Assembly: GCA_963662465.1 (NCBI GenBank)
Contig: OY759599.1
Location: forward strand, 3,200,001 to 3,264,000
From: Desulfatiglandales bacterium
GTDB taxonomy: Bacteria; Desulfobacterota; DSM-4660; Desulfatiglandales; Desulfatiglandaceae
DNA length: 64,000 bases
Direction: 5' to 3'
The notes beneath the pieces are model-generated. The model searched no databases. It was not told where the DNA came from and saw nothing but the letters and a program-made list of their open reading frames with translations. Both the position numbers and the translations under genes were made by a program. Of this stretch, positions 11,307-19,582 are shown one piece after another (positions within the stretch are counted from its first letter, which is position 1; every line of letters begins with the position of its first letter).

Positions 11307-14300
11307 ATGTCGCTCTTTCAAAAATCGGTAATCAAGAAATATCTGGCCAACATTCCCCAAGAGGAAATTGCAGCTTCTTACGGAACATTCAAAGAAAAAT
11401 ACTCACCTGCTAAAATTGACGAGATAAAACGAATAAAAGAGGAAGAGTATCAAGATGGTTTCCTTAGAGATATTTTTGTCAGCGTCCTCGGCTACACTCT
11501 TAAGCCTGATGATGGCTATGATCTATCTCGTGAATTCAAAAACCAATCTGACAGCAAGAAGGCTGATGGAGCTATTTTAAAAAATGGGAAAGCCATTGCT
11601 GTAATAGAGCTGAAATCGAACAAAACAAAAAGCTTAAAAAGTATTACAGAACAAGCATTCAACTACAAAAACAATCAGCCTGAATGTAAATACGTTGTCA
11701 CGTCAAATTTCCGGAAATTACGGTTTTATATAGATTATGCTGGTGAATATGAAGAATTCAACTTGTTCAATATAGGAATAGAAGATTTTCAGTTGTTGTA
11801 TTTGATTTTGAACAAAAACAATCTTCTTGCCGATATCCCGATCAAACTCAAAAAAGAAAGCATTTACCATGAACAAGACGTATCAAACCGACTTTACAAA
11901 GAATATTCTGTTTTCAAAAAGGACCTTTTCCAGAATCTAACAAATAATAACCCCGAAAACGACAAGCTCACCCTATTTAAAAAATCACAAAAATTGATTG
12001 ACCGTTTTTTATTTATCTTTTTCGCAGAAGATAGAGGCTTACTTCCGCCTAATTCCATTGACCGTATTATCGAAAGATTTAACATTTTGAAAGACGAAGA
12101 TTCTTACAAGCCACTTTATGATATCTATAAACAATATTTTGGTTACATGAATATTGGACGTAAGGGGAAAATGCCAAATGATGATATCCCGGAATACAAT
12201 GGGGGTTTATTTGCTCCTGATGTAGTATTGGATGCTCTTATAATTGACGATTCTGTTTTGATTAACGACTTACAAAAATTTTCTGCTTATGATTTTAATA
12301 CAGAAGTTGACGTTAATGTACTTGGTCACATATTCGAACACTCCCTATCTGAAATTGAAGAAATTACGTCAAAGTTAGAAGGAAAAACAACCAACAAGAA
12401 TAGGAGTAAACGCAAAAAGGATGGCGTTTTTTATACTCCCAGTTACATTACACAGTACATTGTTGAAAATACGGTGGGGACACTTTGTGAAGAAAAACGC
12501 AAAGCGCTTGATCTTCTTGAGATTGAAATTCATGAAAGTCATCATAATAAATCTGGAAAATTATCAGCAAAGGGAAAGGACCTACAACAGAAACTTGAAA
12601 ACTATAAACAATGGTTGTTGTCATTAAGAATTCTTGACCCGGCTTGCGGTAGCGGCGCGTTTCTGAATCAGGCACTTAGTTTTCTTATAGATGAACATAA
12701 ACTGATTACAGAGTTTCAAACTGACTTGCAAAAAGGGCAAATTTCTCTTTTTAATATTGAGAACCACATTTTGGAAAACAACTTATACGGAGTTGATATT
12801 AATGAAGAAAGCGTTGAGATTACCAAGCTTTCACTTTGGTTACGTACAGCAAACAGAAAACGAAAACTTTCAAACTTGAGCAGCAATATTAGATGCGGAA
12901 ATTCATTGATAGATGATCCTAAAATTGCCGGAAAGAATGCTTTTAAATGGGATGGTGATTTTCCTGATATTATGAAAGAAGGGGGGTTTGATGTTATTAT
13001 TGGAAATCCCCCATATGTTCGCCAGGAATTGTTGGCACCTTATAAAACATACTTTGAAAAAAATTATCAATGCTATTCAGGAACAGCCGATCTCTTTTCA
13101 TATTTCTATGAAAAATCTTTGGTTCTGCTAAAAGAGTCAGGATATTTTGGTTTTATTTCAAATACATTTGCAAAAACAACTGGAGCAGCTGCAAAACTTC
13201 GTCATTTCTTAAAAAATAACAGCAGATTTATTTCTATTGCAGATTTTTCAGGTCAGAAAATATTTGAAGGAATTACCACCTATCCGATCATTCCGATATT
13301 AAAAAAAGAAAAATCATTTGGCAGATTCAATTACCTAAAAGTAAAAGAAAAAGATTTGCTGACGCTTAGTTATGCTATAGTACAAAATTCAATAGTTGTT
13401 GAGCAGTCTTTGTTAAAGGACGAATCTTGGAGTTTTGAATCTCAAACAAAACAAAACTTAAAAGAGAAAATTAAGGCAAATAAAACAGTCCGAGAAATTT
13501 TCGGAAAGAGCTATTACGGTATAAAAACCGGCTTAAATGTAGCATTTATTATTTCAGGTGATAAACGGAATGAAATAATTGCAAAGAATCCAAAAGAATC
13601 TGACATTATTAAACCGTTTATTGAAGGTAAGGACTTGAATAAGTGGACATGCCATGATGTTGGTAAATGGCTTATACTGTTTCCAAAAGGTTGGACTTCA
13701 ACTATTTCTGGTTGCAAAAATGAGCAAGAAGCATGGAAATATATTGAAAATGAATTTCCTGGGGTTGCAGGACATTTGTTAGATTATAAAGAAAAAGCAG
13801 TTCGACGGTATGACAAAGGAGAATTTTGGTGGGAACTGAGAGCTTGTAATTACTATGATTACTTTAATTCGAAAAAAATTACTTGGCCTAATTTACAATT
13901 TTCCAACAAATTTTCCTATGATGATAATGGATTTTACATCAATGCCCCATCTGTGATTCTTCCGACAGGCAGCAAAGTTTTACTCTGCATTATTAATTCA
14001 AAACTGGCATGGTTCTTTTTTAAAGATGTATGTGTAATGAGAAGCGGAGGATATGTTGAAGTAAAACCCCAATATTTTGAACAATTCCCTGTACACCTTC
14101 CTATTGATGAAAAGCCATTAAATGAAAAAGCAGACATCATACTCATGAAAAGTAAAGAACTTTATGAACTGAAAACTGATTTCCTCAATTTTTTTAAAAG
14201 CGAATTAGAGCCTGAAAAAATTACCAACAAACTGGAAAATTGGTATGAGCTTGATTGGGATCCGTTTAAGAAAGAAATGATAAAATGCAAAGTCAAAGAG

Positions 14301-14471
14301 TTAAGTCTGAAAGAACGCAAAGAATGGCAAGACTATTTTATCGAGCATAAGGAAAAAGCTAATAAACTTAAATCAATAATTACTGCTACCGACAAACAAA
14401 TAGACCAACTGGTTTACAAACTATACAACCTGAACGACGACGAAATCAAAATCGTAAATGGAGAAACATGA
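11307..14471 (+). CDS. Type IIG restriction-modification enzyme (fused REase/N6-MTase/TRD)
   Basis: N-terminal KADG...IELK nuclease, DPACGSG (motif I), NPPY (motif IV), TaqI_C-like TRD; stop 3 bp before the attC. Confidence 0.9.
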   Translation: MSLFQKSVIKKYLANIPQEEIAASYGTFKEKYSPAKIDEIKRIKEEEYQDGFLRDIFVSVLGYTLKPDDGYDLSREFKNQSDSKKADGAILKNGKAIAVIELKSNKTKSLKSITEQAFNYKNNQPECKYVVTSNFRKLRFYIDYAGEYEEFNLFNIGIEDFQLLYLILNKNNLLADIPIKLKKESIYHEQDVSNRLYKEYSVFKKDLFQNLTNNNPENDKLTLFKKSQKLIDRFLFIFFAEDRGLLPPNSIDRIIERFNILKDEDSYKPLYDIYKQYFGYMNIGRKGKMPNDDIPEYNGGLFAPDVVLDALIIDDSVLINDLQKFSAYDFNTEVDVNVLGHIFEHSLSEIEEITSKLEGKTTNKNRSKRKKDGVFYTPSYITQYIVENTVGTLCEEKRKALDLLEIEIHESHHNKSGKLSAKGKDLQQKLENYKQWLLSLRILDPACGSGAFLNQALSFLIDEHKLITEFQTDLQKGQISLFNIENHILENNLYGVDINEESVEITKLSLWLRTANRKRKLSNLSSNIRCGNSLIDDPKIAGKNAFKWDGDFPDIMKEGGFDVIIGNPPYVRQELLAPYKTYFEKNYQCYSGTADLFSYFYEKSLVLLKESGYFGFISNTFAKTTGAAAKLRHFLKNNSRFISIADFSGQKIFEGITTYPIIPILKKEKSFGRFNYLKVKEKDLLTLSYAIVQNSIVVEQSLLKDESWSFESQTKQNLKEKIKANKTVREIFGKSYYGIKTGLNVAFIISGDKRNEIIAKNPKESDIIKPFIEGKDLNKWTCHDVGKWLILFPKGWTSTISGCKNEQEAWKYIENEFPGVAGHLLDYKEKAVRRYDKGEFWWELRACNYYDYFNSKKITWPNLQFSNKFSYDDNGFYINAPSVILPTGSKVLLCIINSKLAWFFFKDVCVMRSGGYVEVKPQYFEQFPVHLPIDEKPLNEKADIILMKSKELYELKTDFLNFFKSELEPEKITNKLENWYELDWDPFKKEMIKCKVKELSLKERKEWQDYFIEHKEKANKLKSIITATDKQIDQLVYKLYNLNDDEIKIVNGET

Positions 14472-14560: not shown

Positions 14561-15069
14561 CGCCGAGGAAAGCTCGGCGTATCTTGCAAGGTGAAAGTCC
14601 CTGTCGGGAGGAAATTCAGTAATGGCTTTCTGTAAGGGTTAGCCACCCACCCGTATCGAGCCTTGGACCCATGGCGGAGTTGTTCAGTCTGTCAGGTGTA
14701 GGACACCGGCATTCATACGCCGGTTGGAAACGAGCCGCGCTCAGTGAGGCGGGGCATAAGTCGGAGGACTCACCCCGCCGAACGGCTTGAACAGCGAACA
14801 AGATGGGTTAAGCGTAGGCAGAGTATCCTGTAGGCCGCAGGGGTGATCGCGCACCCTGAAGAGCTGGTACAGCTTCGAAATAGCAATTGCGGACGCCGAG
14901 GGTTTCAACGTTCACCGAAGGCAACACAGAAGCATCCGTTATGGCGAGGATGTGGAGGTCCGCCGGAGTCCTCAGGCCGTGGCATGCAGGAAGAGATACG
15001 CCGTAGAACTCGGGAAGCCCCAAAGGCTCCAGGAAGTTTATTTCACACTGACGGTAAGGTAAAGGAACA

Positions 15070-16899
15070 GTGGTTCACTACACAACCGAAATGCTGAAAG
15101 GAACAACCGGGTGGGAGGTAAATCGGACATCCGATGGCCCTCTATACGCCGACGGGGTGTCTTATCAGGCATACTACTCAGCGGTGGGGAAAGCCCACTA
15201 CATGGGGAAGGACCTGACGGAAGTACGCAGCCTGCAAAGGAAACTCGTACCGGACAATGTAGGGCTGGAACAATATGAGCCAACCTCACTGCAGGGAATA
15301 GCCATTAAGGCAGAAGTTGATGGAAAACACCGTTTTCAAGACCTTTACCGGTGTCTGAATGCCGGATTCCTCCATGCTTGCTGGAAAGACCTGAATAAGG
15401 ACGCAGGCAGTGGTGTGGACAAAGTGACGGCCGAGGCCTACGAAGAAAATCTGGGGGCCAACATCGCGTCACTGGCGGAGCGATTGAAAACCAAACGTTA
15501 CCGTGCCAAATTGGTACGCAGAAGTTACATCCCCAAAGAAAACGGTAAACAACGCCCCTTGGGCATTCCGGCCCTTGAAGACCGGTTGGTTCAACTGGCA
15601 TGCGCCAAACTCCTGACAGCCATATATGAAGCCGACTTTCTGGATATCAGCTATGGTTACAGGCCCAACCGAAGCGCAAAGGATGCAGTCAATGACTTGC
15701 GCTTTGAACTTCAGTTTGGGACATATGGTTACGTCGTCGAGGCCGACATCAAAGGCTTTTTCGATCATATGGACCATGACTGGCTCTTGCGAATGCTCAA
15801 GGAAAGAATTGATGATGCGCCGTTTTTAAACCTGATCCAAAAATGGCTCAAAGCCGGCATTCTGGACACGGACGGTAAGATTATCCATCCGGAAAGCGGC
15901 ACTCCCCAAGGCGGGTTATGCAAAGCTTTGCATAAGCCTCCTTATGCCAAGTTGCCGATTATGCAAAGTAAACCGCTAAAGCTACCAGATTTCCAACACC
16001 TTCACTGAGTTTACTTTGCATAATATCACGGGTATCTCAAACTTGAAATCCAATTAAACGATGCAGCATCCTTGGTTTATTTTGGATAAAATGATCTGGT
16101 TTTTTTCCGACAAATGATTTTGTGAGCTTTTCGCTCAGTCATCATTAGCAAAGATTATGCTAAGTAAATCAAAAAGAAACCCTTGAATTCCAATGCGTTT
16201 TATGGCTTACTTTGCATAATTACTTTCTTTGCATAAGGGGGTATCGTATCGCCGGTTTTGGCAAATGTTTACCTGCATTTTGCCCTAGACTTATGGTTTG
16301 AAAAGATGGTGAAGCCCCACTGTAAAGGGGCCGCCATGATCATCCGGTACGCAGACGATTTTGTCTGCGCTTTTCAGTACAAGGTAGAGGCGAAAGGGTT
16401 TTTCGACGTACTGCCTGTAAGGCTGGAGAAGTTCGGTCTCAGTGTAGCGCCTGAGAAAACCGCCATGATGCGGTTCAGCCGCTTTGATCCGACCATGCGC
16501 AGGCGAATTGTCTTTTTGGGTTTTGAGACCTACTGGACCTATGACAAACAGGGAAAGGTGAGAGTCATGCAGCGCACCGCTCGCAAAAAGTTACAAGGTG
16601 CATGCAGGCGCATCAAGGAATGGGTGAAGGAAAACCGTCATTTGAAGGGGATCGCGTACATAAAGGCGCTCAACCGCAAACTGCGCGGACATTACAATTA
16701 TTACAGCGTGGTGGGAAACGCCAATTCGTTATGGCGTTTTTACCGATGGGCGGTAGATTGTTCGTTTAAGTGGCTGAACCGAAGAGGGGGAAAGCGTAAA
16801 AGCTTCACTTGGAAGGTGTTCCACCGGGCCTTAGATCGCCTGGGGATTGTTAAACCGAAGCTGCCGACGGCCCCACAGCCACGGAAAGTGTTTTGCTGA
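15070..16899 (+). pseudogene. ltrA: Group II intron RT/maturase, interrupted at GTPQGG by the insertion at 15916-16236
   Basis: RPLGIP, DIKGFFD, GTPQGG | IVSPVLAN, RYADDF, domain X LRGHYNYY; no HNH domain; start codon uncertain. Confidence 0.9.
15916..16236. mobile_element. Non-autonomous RIT-like miniature element (TTATGC/GCATAA site array)
   Basis: Terminal IR ttatgcaaag/ctttgcataa; TTATGC pairs spaced 17 bp at both ends (15942/15959; 16214/16231); internal inverted partners at 16009-16024 and 16154-16168. Confidence 0.75.
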
Positions 16900-17927: not shown

Positions 17928-18518
17928 ATGAACCAGCGATTTTATCTGCTGAAAATACGACTACTTGATATCGAGCCTGCAATCTGGCGTCGTTTTGTGG
18001 TGCCCGCCAGCATTACATTGGACCGTATGCACGATGTCATCCAGATTGTCATGGGCTGGAACGACAGCCATCTGCACGAATTCACGATTGGAAAAAAACG
18101 CTATACCGAATATCCAGAATCCAAAGAAGACGGACTGGTATGCGGCAGATACCGGATCGGGGATCTGATCAAACAGAAAGGCCGCACCTTTCATTATCTG
18201 TATGACTTTGGTGACAGCTGGGAGCACGAACTTGTTCTTGAAGAAAGTCGCTATTTCAATCCGGAATTGAGAACTGAACTGGCCTGTCTTGAAGGCGAAC
18301 GTGCCTGTCCGCCAGAAGATGTAGGTGGTGCGCCCGGTTATTATGAATTCTGCAAAGCACTGAAGGACCCGAGTCATGAAGAGCATGAAAGCTATATGGA
18401 ATGGTCCGGTGGTGACTACGACAGTGCAGGTTTTGATGCCGATGCCGTTTACTGGGAGCTGATAAAATACCTCCGCTGGTCCCGAGACAGATATCAAAAC
18501 TGGGAAGTAACAGAATGA
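17928..18518 (+). CDS. Plasmid pRiA4b ORF-3 family protein
   Basis: IWRRFVVP..ITL..HDVIQ..MGW.DSHLHEF, YLYDFGDSWEH, CPPEDVGG. Confidence 0.9.
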   Translation: MNQRFYLLKIRLLDIEPAIWRRFVVPASITLDRMHDVIQIVMGWNDSHLHEFTIGKKRYTEYPESKEDGLVCGRYRIGDLIKQKGRTFHYLYDFGDSWEHELVLEESRYFNPELRTELACLEGERACPPEDVGGAPGYYEFCKALKDPSHEEHESYMEWSGGDYDSAGFDADAVYWELIKYLRWSRDRYQNWEVTE

Positions 18519-19582
18519 AAAAGGGTAAAGACAAAAGAATACAGAAGCCCGGAAAAAAAGAGACATCCATTGTCCGGTCCTCGGCTGCTGAGTACCTGAC
18601 ATTTGTCGCGGCATGCGGTAAAGGAGGCGTTGAGGCAGTTTATGCAGATGAAAATATCTGGCTGACCCAAAAAATGATGGGCGTTCTCTACGATGTCGAG
18701 ACGCATACCATTAACTATCACTTGAAAAAGGTGTTTACTGATAGTGAGTTGGAAGAGGATTCAGTTATTCGAAATTTTCGAATAACTGCCGCAGATGGTA
18801 AAAATTACAATACTAAACATTACAATCTTTCGGCTATCATCGCTGTAGGCTACAAGGTCAACTCAGAACGTGCCGTGCAGTTCCGTAAATGGGCGACAAC
18901 GATTATTCAGGAGTTCACCATCAAAGGCTACACAATGGATGATGAGCGTCTAAAGAATAACGGTTCTGTCCTTGGCAAACAATATTTTGAAGAGCAATTG
19001 CAACGTATCCGGGAAATTCGTCTGAGTGAGCGTAAGTTCTATCAGAAAATTACCGATATCTATGCCTCGTCCATTGATTATGATATATCGGCTCAAGCCA
19101 CGAAGCGTTTTTTTGCGACGGTACAAAACAAGCTGCATTGGGCAATCCATGGCCAGACGGCTGCGGAAATGATCGTAGACCGTGCGGACCACAAAAAAGA
19201 TAATATGGGGCTGACCACCTGGAAAGACGCTCCAAAAGGTAAAATTCAAAAGTTCGATGTCAGTGTGGCCAAAAACTATTTGACCGAAAATGAAATGGCG
19301 CAATTGCAGCGGTTGGTCTCTGCCTATCTGGACGTTGCGGAAGATATGGCGCTACGGCAGATCCCGATGACGATGCAAGATTGGGAAAAACGCCTCAACC
19401 GGTTCATCGAAGCGACAGACCGGAAAATTCTGCAGGACGCAGGAAAAGTCACAGCAGAAATTGCCAAGGCCCATGCCGAAAGTGAATTTGAAAGATACCG
19501 CATCATTCAGGATCGCCTCTTTGAAAGTGACTTCGACCGGATGATCAAGCAGTTGGAACAGAAAAATGAGGATAAAGAATAG
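18515..19582 (+). CDS. rhuM: RhuM/virulence-associated DNA-binding family protein
   Basis: IWLTQKMM, YNLSAIIAVGYKVNS.RA.QFRKWA, IREIRLSERKFYQKITDIY. Confidence 0.9.
   Translation: MKKGKDKRIQKPGKKETSIVRSSAAEYLTFVAACGKGGVEAVYADENIWLTQKMMGVLYDVETHTINYHLKKVFTDSELEEDSVIRNFRITAADGKNYNTKHYNLSAIIAVGYKVNSERAVQFRKWATTIIQEFTIKGYTMDDERLKNNGSVLGKQYFEEQLQRIREIRLSERKFYQKITDIYASSIDYDISAQATKRFFATVQNKLHWAIHGQTAAEMIVDRADHKKDNMGLTTWKDAPKGKIQKFDVSVAKNYLTENEMAQLQRLVSAYLDVAEDMALRQIPMTMQDWEKRLNRFIEATDRKILQDAGKVTAEIAKAHAESEFERYRIIQDRLFESDFDRMIKQLEQKNEDKE

Follow-up and report, generated by a model that had tools for sequence, protein, structure and literature searches.

Tyrosine-recombinase transposons such as Tn916 carry 6-bp coupling sequences. 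Tn554 and SE are described as having them too (PMC10214605). Recombinase-in-trio (RIT) elements are defined by three genes (ritA-ritB-ritC) and 34-bp inverted repeats, with ends that form 47-51-bp imperfect palindromes; circular forms were sought but not found (Van Houdt 2009/2012, PMC3414803; Smyshlyaev 2021, PMC8138268; PMC10214605; PMC5737581). Target choice, movement, intermediates and the role of the three recombinases are listed as untested in these papers (PMC10214605 Table 1; PMC3414803; PMC5737581). Here we describe a 321-bp insert at positions 15916-16236 of a 64,000-nucleotide stretch of a Desulfatiglandales genome (GCA_963662465.1, contig OY759599.1, positions 3,200,001 to 3,264,000; hereafter the window), where it divides a group II intron reverse transcriptase (RT) gene at the Gly-Gly codons of the PQGG motif. 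The insert is very probably a miniature, gene-less derivative of an RIT element, from a lineage that integrates in the GGNGGN hexamer encoding the Gly-Gly of PQGG in group II intron RT genes.

The locus reads, in order, as left flank, hexamer h1, a perfect 20-bp palindrome (PAL), hexamer h2, a 295-bp body holding six TTATGCNAAG sites, hexamer h3 and right flank. The left flank, ...ggc act ccc caa, runs directly into GGCGGG, and GGGGGT opens the right flank and is followed by atc gta tcg ccg. At the left body end the sites at 15942 and 15959 are spaced by 17 bp, and their inverted partner is at 16014. The right end mirrors this arrangement: the sites at 16210 and 16227 have the same spacing, their inverted partner is at 16155, and in both cases the partner sits about 55 bp further in. 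Re-reading the sequence thus reproduced exactly the anatomy proposed in an initial annotation of this DNA, namely the 17-bp-spaced pairs with inverted partners, PAL and the three hexamers. The TTATGCNAAG motif occurs eight times in the window, always within the insert, compared with a mean of 0.56 in shuffled sequence, and none of 100 shuffles reached eight. No open reading frame (ORF) of 40 or more amino acids lies wholly within the 321 bp. Together with its arms, h2 forms a core of the form GCATAA-6-TTATGC. We take this inner site to be dif-like.

The RT reading frame is broken after ...GTPQGG at 15915 and picks up with GGIVSPVLAN at 16237, while the N-terminal ORF reads on into the insert as far as a stop at 16008. 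In intact paralogues, GTPQGG IVSPVLAN reads across a single hexamer, and deleting the 321 bp together with one hexamer (327 bp) would therefore restore the RT frame, in agreement with the initial proposal that excision leaving one flank repairs the gene. Two such intact paralogues of the window RT exist, at about 92% protein identity and both reading caa GGGGGG att gta across the site, and about 20 more RT copies in the genome are likewise uninterrupted, with one hexamer at the site. The RT in the window is inactivated by the insert; the protein could still be supplied in trans from the two intact paralogues.

Searching the complete 8.16-Mb genome by BLAST yielded eight loci, comprising seven full copies (A-E, G and H, with A being the copy in the window) and one truncated copy (F). 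At all eight the point of insertion in the RT gene is the same codon pair, and the occupied genes fall into three families with protein identities of just 24-40% to the window RT. Copies A and B sit in unrelated RT genes and yet have bodies that are 100% identical over 295 bp; across the whole 321 bp these two copies differ at just two letters, both in h2 (GCCTCC in A, CCCGCC in B). The bodies of G and H (293 bp) are inverted relative to those of A-E, and the body of E is 100% identical to theirs over 293 bp in that inverted arrangement. In all seven full copies PAL nevertheless sits toward the N-terminal half of the RT. Copies G and H are tandem duplicates 3.7 kb apart, and the region at 3.29-3.35 Mb (G000:C1) is a dense cluster of one intron family with both intact and interrupted members. 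Locus F was considered as a possible longer element and rejected, as a deletion had truncated this copy and taken part of the RT with it.

Relatives of the insert were found in many other bacteria. A scan of one-per-species genomes for the exact 20-mer PAL, in which all counts are lower bounds, returned at least 117 stretches from many phyla. Among the 119 PAL occurrences listed, Pro-Gln codons and a GGNGGN-like hexamer precede the palindrome in 32 (hereafter RT-type relatives), 54 have other flanks, and 33 could not be oriented, with the RT signature also present in 7 of those 33 among the matches listed. The initial claim that the PQGG hexamer of group II intron RTs is the target was thus borne out at all eight loci here and in at least 32 of 119 palindrome occurrences elsewhere. 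At five loci (L008, L034, L047, L066 and L080) the RT halves stand 3.5-3.7 kb apart, split at the same hexamer; L047 and L080 are classed as full-length by size only. Three tyrosine-recombinase genes were confirmed with Pfam in L034, L066 and L129. In L034 and L066 their products are Phage_integrase proteins of about 411-414, 334-338 and 342-352 aa; the genes overlap slightly, and the proteins score as Xer-like in NCBIfam, below the cut-offs. L008 has three ORFs of matching size in the opposite orientation. Miniature elements occupy other RT sites (L006, L025 and L052), with a length from h1 to h3 of 321-334 bp. One of these, L052, was tried as a guide to the ancestral state of the window locus and ruled out, being only 73-76% identical at the DNA level and not syntenic.

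The most informative relative is L129, an autonomous element on a metagenome contig whose left end matches that of the window exactly over 27 bases. Positions 1-159 of the insert align with L129 306-464 (83.8%) and positions 159-321 with L129 3621-3772 (81.6%). The insert is therefore collinear with both ends of an autonomous element, with a breakpoint at one position, and cleanly lacks the three recombinase genes. Both ends of L066 align with it as well (83% and 86%), there in inverted order. These alignments confirm the initial identification of the insert as a non-autonomous RIT derivative, whose ends run in parallel with those of three-recombinase elements. The insert very probably keeps the two non-coding ends of its parent, with three putative TTATGCNAAG binding sites each, as well as PAL. 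The search proposed at the outset, for autonomous elements of this genome with these ends, found none; in other bacteria such relatives occupy the same RT hexamer (L008, L034, L066 and L129). The initial annotation had also named two findings that would count against it, a lack of recombinase-encoding relatives with these ends and a scatter of other copies over unrelated sites; instead, such relatives share the ends and the other copies occupy the same site.

The hexamers do not behave like a target duplication. The two flanking hexamers differ in four of the seven full copies here (in A at 2 of 6 positions) and are identical in D, E and H; elsewhere they differ in six of eight full elements, leaving out L017, a body-less locus with two palindromes. 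Of the 32 RT-type relatives, 11 have an h2 that is exactly the reverse complement of h1, and in 28 the reverse complement of h2 fits GGNGGN, as had been anticipated for the flanking hexamers. Comparing h1 with the reverse complement of h2 across these relatives gives 41 mismatches, of which 33 fall at hexamer positions 3 or 6 and none at positions 1 or 2 (binomial P about 8e-10 for the third-position bias, the loci not being independent). The inner hexamer is non-coding and yet varies like codon third positions, as expected if it was copied from earlier RT targets, which supports, indirectly, the initial idea that the element keeps a record of such targets. In some relatives, GGGTCG or GGTTCA (Gly-Ser) is paired with an inner hexamer of the GGCGGG type, giving three to four mismatches, a sign that spacer mismatches of this size are tolerated. 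Taken with the copies A and B that differ only in h2, these patterns argue that, as originally claimed, each of the three hexamers is a 6-bp crossover spacer that can be exchanged.

The origin of each hexamer in the window can be proposed on the same grounds. GGCGGG, the window's h1, is the hexamer of other occupied RT families; because the intact paralogues of the window RT carry GGGGGG at the site, h1 was probably brought in by the element from a donor. A metagenome contig spans the empty site, differing at 1 of 230 and 3 of 73 letters. After 'caagg' it agrees with the right-hand hexamer, as the paralogue contigs also do. Given the paralogue hexamer and this empty-site contig, h3 (GGGGGT) is most simply explained as the target's own hexamer, and it probably represents the target's own Gly-Gly codons. 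The third hexamer, h2, reads GGAGGC on the other strand, which matches no RT hexamer in this genome and is a flank in relatives L052, L076 and L114; it, too, appears to be imported.

The genome also has RIT elements of its own, with 58 integrase-domain matches, several of them grouped in trios. RIT1, at 1582172-1585590 (G000:C1), is present in four copies plus one short derivative, and its body occurs in both orientations among them. Its junction reads flank-TATCTG-[ TTATGCCGCGAGCGGCATAA ]-CAGATA-TAATGCCGAC..(17 bp)..TTATGCC ... -hexamer-flank, and its arms have the form T[AT]ATGCCG. RIT1 is inserted in an IS66-like transposase gene and has its own miniature derivative near 5169985. In a second resident RIT (T3; L003 3933-7426), the hexamer CGCAGC is followed by the palindrome AAATCCAAACGTTTGGATTT and then by the reverse-complement hexamer, and the arms are [AT][AT]ATCCAAAC sites 17 bp apart. 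This element, within L003 2724-9140 (G000:C1:280723-287139), is flanked by reverse-strand tyrosine-recombinase genes and has a duplicate near 7.044-7.053 Mb; the locus may represent an RIT inserted into another RIT. Denoting the left hexamer h and its inverted counterpart h', RIT1 and T3 have in common the layout h-PAL-h'-[17-bp-spaced arms ... arms]-h, with arm sequences different from those of the insert. As two resident RIT families share it, the junction layout of the insert is the generic one for RITs. Twelve sites in the genome fit the pattern flank-h-PAL-h'-body-h, seven from the insert's family and five from RIT1; none of the resident RITs uses the insert's site sequence. The initial annotation had cited T(T/A)ATGC cores at 17-bp spacing as a known feature of RIT ends. 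This feature was verified on a resident RIT, and no such description was found in the accessible parts of the RIT literature.

How might such an element move? In the scheme that we infer for the assignment of proteins to sites, the positions of cleavage, a circular intermediate and the order of events, the integrated insert would present three core sites: S1 (target arm-h1-arm), S2 (arm-h2-arm, of inverted polarity) and S3 (arm-h3-target arm). Integration would be a conservative tyrosine-recombinase exchange within the 6-bp hexamer, with RitA, RitB and RitC acting in trans and cutting at the hexamer borders, so that the junctions of the insert would mark where the RIT family cuts and rejoins DNA. 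Recombination between S1 and S3 would release a circle whose junction would consist of two inverted core sites back to back, and either of these could then cross over with a new RT hexamer. With either junction site usable, PAL would always come to lie on the N-terminal side while the body could take either orientation. The core site left unused would become the inner site and retain the hexamer of the donor, and mismatched spacers followed by replication would give one donor-type and one target-type flank. Recombination between S2 and S3 (or S1 and S2) would invert the body in place. For copy A, the donor would have resided in a GGAGGC-type RT with an inner hexamer CCCGCC and would have entered GGGGGT through its inner site. 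In L008 and L034, which come from one metagenome-assembled genome (MAG), the bodies are inverted and the hexamers are positioned as the model predicts.

Several observations weigh against this account. No gene-carrying element with TTATGCNAAG arrays was found in the genome, where a cluster scan of the complete sequence returned only the eight known loci, and a hexamer-density scan added only RIT1-type ends. Close Rit homologues are also missing from this genome, with the best tblastn matches to the RitABC proteins of L034 being 27-38% identical. The element was found in none of 30 genomes of other relatives (10 of the same genus, several of them incomplete). Target arms show little similarity to the arms of the element. 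In-place inversion and re-integration give the same products, which leaves the order of events open. Neither an excised allele of the window locus nor a circle junction was seen in Logan contigs, in which circle junctions cannot be judged. Finally, the literature, to the extent that its text was available, yielded no description of an RT target, of the layout with a palindrome and three hexamers, or of miniature RITs; parts of this anatomy may already be in print.

Some candidates for the missing pieces were examined and set aside. Contigs from isolate runs (X1, X2 and X4) that skip 327 bp proved to be 9%-diverged paralogues, and one X3 metagenome contig carries a near-identical empty site from another population. 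At a recombinase trio at 3491460-3493841, RIT-type inverted repeats were not found.

Could the insert be something other than an RIT derivative? It might be an ordinary miniature inverted-repeat transposable element (MITE) of a DDE transposon, bounded by terminal inverted repeats of 10 bp (TTATGCAAAG / CTTTGCATAA) and by a target duplication of 6 bp whose sequence happens to be GGCGGG. Terminal inverted repeats are indeed present, and copies D, E and H do have identical flanks. This explanation is nonetheless very improbable, as the flanks of the other four full copies differ, including those of A, whose body is 100% identical to that of B; all eight copies occupy one codon pair; the body is inverted between fixed flanks; and the full-length relatives encode only three tyrosine recombinases. 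The two marks of a DDE-type MITE, an identical duplication and a DDE transposase parent, were thus not found. Alternatively, the insert could be moved and inverted by the host XerC/D proteins or by a resident RIT rather than by a cognate one, making it a hitch-hiker similar to the integrative mobile elements exploiting Xer (IMEX). The dif-like form of the inner site and the Xer-like scores of the Rit proteins fit this idea, as do the many integrase-domain matches and RIT trios in a genome that has no cognate RIT and in which identical copies imply recent moves. We consider it unlikely all the same: integration is not at the chromosomal dif site, as it would be for an IMEX, and all copies lie within RT genes; the arms of the resident RITs differ from those of the insert; and the autonomous relatives with these ends encode a trio of their own between them. 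Scanning for CATAA-N6-TTATG turned up no clear candidate for a dif-like site, and none near the skew extremes.

The initial annotation had further suggested that the element could serve as a reversible off-switch for the intron, and one can extend this to a domesticated switch of RT expression that varies in phase by inversion or excision. The body does invert, and excision through S1 and S3 would restore the ORF exactly. Against a switch, both body orientations contain several in-frame stops, and copies E, G and H each lengthen the gene by 325 bp, a number not divisible by three. The recombinase partner is absent from the genome, the contigs show no excised allele at this locus, and the occurrence of one element in three unrelated RT families and in many phyla is what a selfish element would show. 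We therefore regard the off-switch proposal as unsupported and a domesticated switch as extremely unlikely. Read as a miniature RIT derivative, the insert is instead a parasite that lives on another parasite, orphaned in this genome, where its cognate recombinases are missing.

The host of the insert is a group II intron, as judged from its ribozyme domains and from an RT with both RVT_1 and GIIM domains (Table 1). For intron domains V and VI, nothing exceeded the Rfam gathering score between positions 14000 and 17600. A gene for a 1054-aa restriction-modification fusion of Eco57I/MmeI type (PF07669, PF20473, TaqI_C; window 11307-14471, + strand) ends about 150 bp upstream of the match to domains D1-D4. 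Just downstream of the intron, the + strand encodes a pRiA4b ORF-3-like protein (PF07929, E 9e-63; 17928-18518) and a RhuM-family protein (PF13310, E 8e-110; 18515-19582), and these two neighbours suggest that the intron lies in a mobile or island-like region.

Table 1. Coordinates of the interrupted intron and of the parts of the insert, numbered from the first letter of the window.
Feature	Position	Strand	Details
Group II intron ribozyme domains D1-D4	14620..14978	+	Rfam RF02005, 96.8 bits, E 2.7e-27
RT ORF, N-terminal half, ends ...GTPQGG	15070..15915	+	Pfam RVT_1 profile 1-123
h1 = GGCGGG, left crossover hexamer, Gly-Gly codons	15910..15915	+	
PAL, perfect 20-bp palindrome TTATGCAAAGCTTTGCATAA	15916..15935	.	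back-to-back putative recombinase-binding arms TTATGCAAAG / CTTTGCATAA
h2 = GCCTCC (reverse complement GGAGGC), inner crossover hexamer, inverted orientation	15936..15941	-	
Gene-less body, 295 bp	15942..16236	.	TTATGCNAAG sites at both ends
h3 = GGGGGT, right crossover hexamer	16237..16242	+	
RT ORF, C-terminal half and maturase domain	16237..16899	+	Pfam RVT_1 profile 122-204 and GIIM
TTATGCNAAG sites	15916, 15926, 15942, 15959, 16014, 16155, 16210, 16227	+, -, +, +, -, +, -, -	

The same 20-bp palindrome was also met with other arms and in other genes. Such elements interrupt the IS66 C-terminal domain at 'KKNWLFAGS' (PF13817; L051, L070 and L011), an IS91-type Y2_Tnp at '...VMVRYYG' (PF04986; L068 and L077), the JAB domain of RadC at 'HNHPSG' (PF04002; L013 and L016) and a Mu-type transposase (PF09299; L075), and their inner hexamers vary like the codons of the target. 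At four loci (L030, L033, L053 and L108) a solo palindrome has the same target half, inverted, on both sides, and three more (L017, L093 and L129) have two palindromes, either without a body or with the body between them. These solo- and double-palindrome loci may reflect inversions by recombination between copies, or MAG assembly artefacts.

A broader generalization, to which we give an even chance, is that RITs as a whole are site-specific hyperparasites, each lineage homing to one codon pair within a conserved motif in a key gene of another mobile element and using a double, back-to-back crossover site. Its cases would be PQGG in the group II intron RT, 'KNWLF' in IS66, '...RYYG' in the IS91 Y2 transposase, the Mu-type transposase and 'HNHPSG' in RadC. 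The double site, with PAL between two inverted 6-bp spacers, would permit either orientation, tolerate mismatches and store the earlier hexamer. If true, this would give the RITs, which are widespread, their first concrete transposition model and would point to a natural source of recombinases without a fixed spacer. The main value of a miniature, RT-homing RIT is that it makes the RIT mechanism testable. The miniature copy and its relatives can be seen as an experiment done by nature: they place the crossover in a 6-bp spacer that can differ between partners, and they reveal an extra inverted core site, an invertible body and a target suited to cloning on a plasmid. For biochemistry, a mini-element of about 320 bp together with three small recombinases would be convenient to work with. 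The locus is also a case of layered parasitism, in which a transposon disables the RT of a retro-element, and bears on the restraint of group II intron copy number.

Set beside the known systems, the insert is closest to the RITs. The two 17-bp-spaced sites at each of its ends correspond to the '34 bp terminal inverted repeats' of RITs (PMC10214605 Table 1, in the accessible text), its layout is that of the true RITs resident in the genome, its ends are homologous to those of full three-recombinase elements, and it is present in multiple identical copies in one genome. It differs in being gene-less and only 321 bp long and in homing on a defined target, namely the hexamer of PQGG in group II intron RT genes. 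As the three overlapping genes ritA-ritB-ritC are missing from the insert and present in its relatives L034, L066 and L129, it is a derivative and not a complete RIT. Like Tn916, Tn554 and SE, it has 6-bp flanks that are not a duplication, one of them apparently carried from an earlier site, and mismatched spacers seem to be tolerated; unlike them, it targets one codon pair, with spacers that mostly share G at positions 1, 2, 4 and 5, it has an extra inverted inner site (PAL and h2) and an invertible body, and its lineage relies on a set of three Xer-like recombinases, with neither an Xis nor a TnpC-type gene. With MITEs it shares its short, gene-less, multi-copy form, the retention of both parental ends and the need for enzymes in trans, whereas its parent is a tyrosine-recombinase and not a DDE element and there is no true target duplication. 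Its core, GCATAA-6 bp-TTATG, and the simple Xer-like class of its recombinases recall Xer/dif and the IMEX, from which it differs in not residing at dif and in deriving from an element with recombinases of its own.

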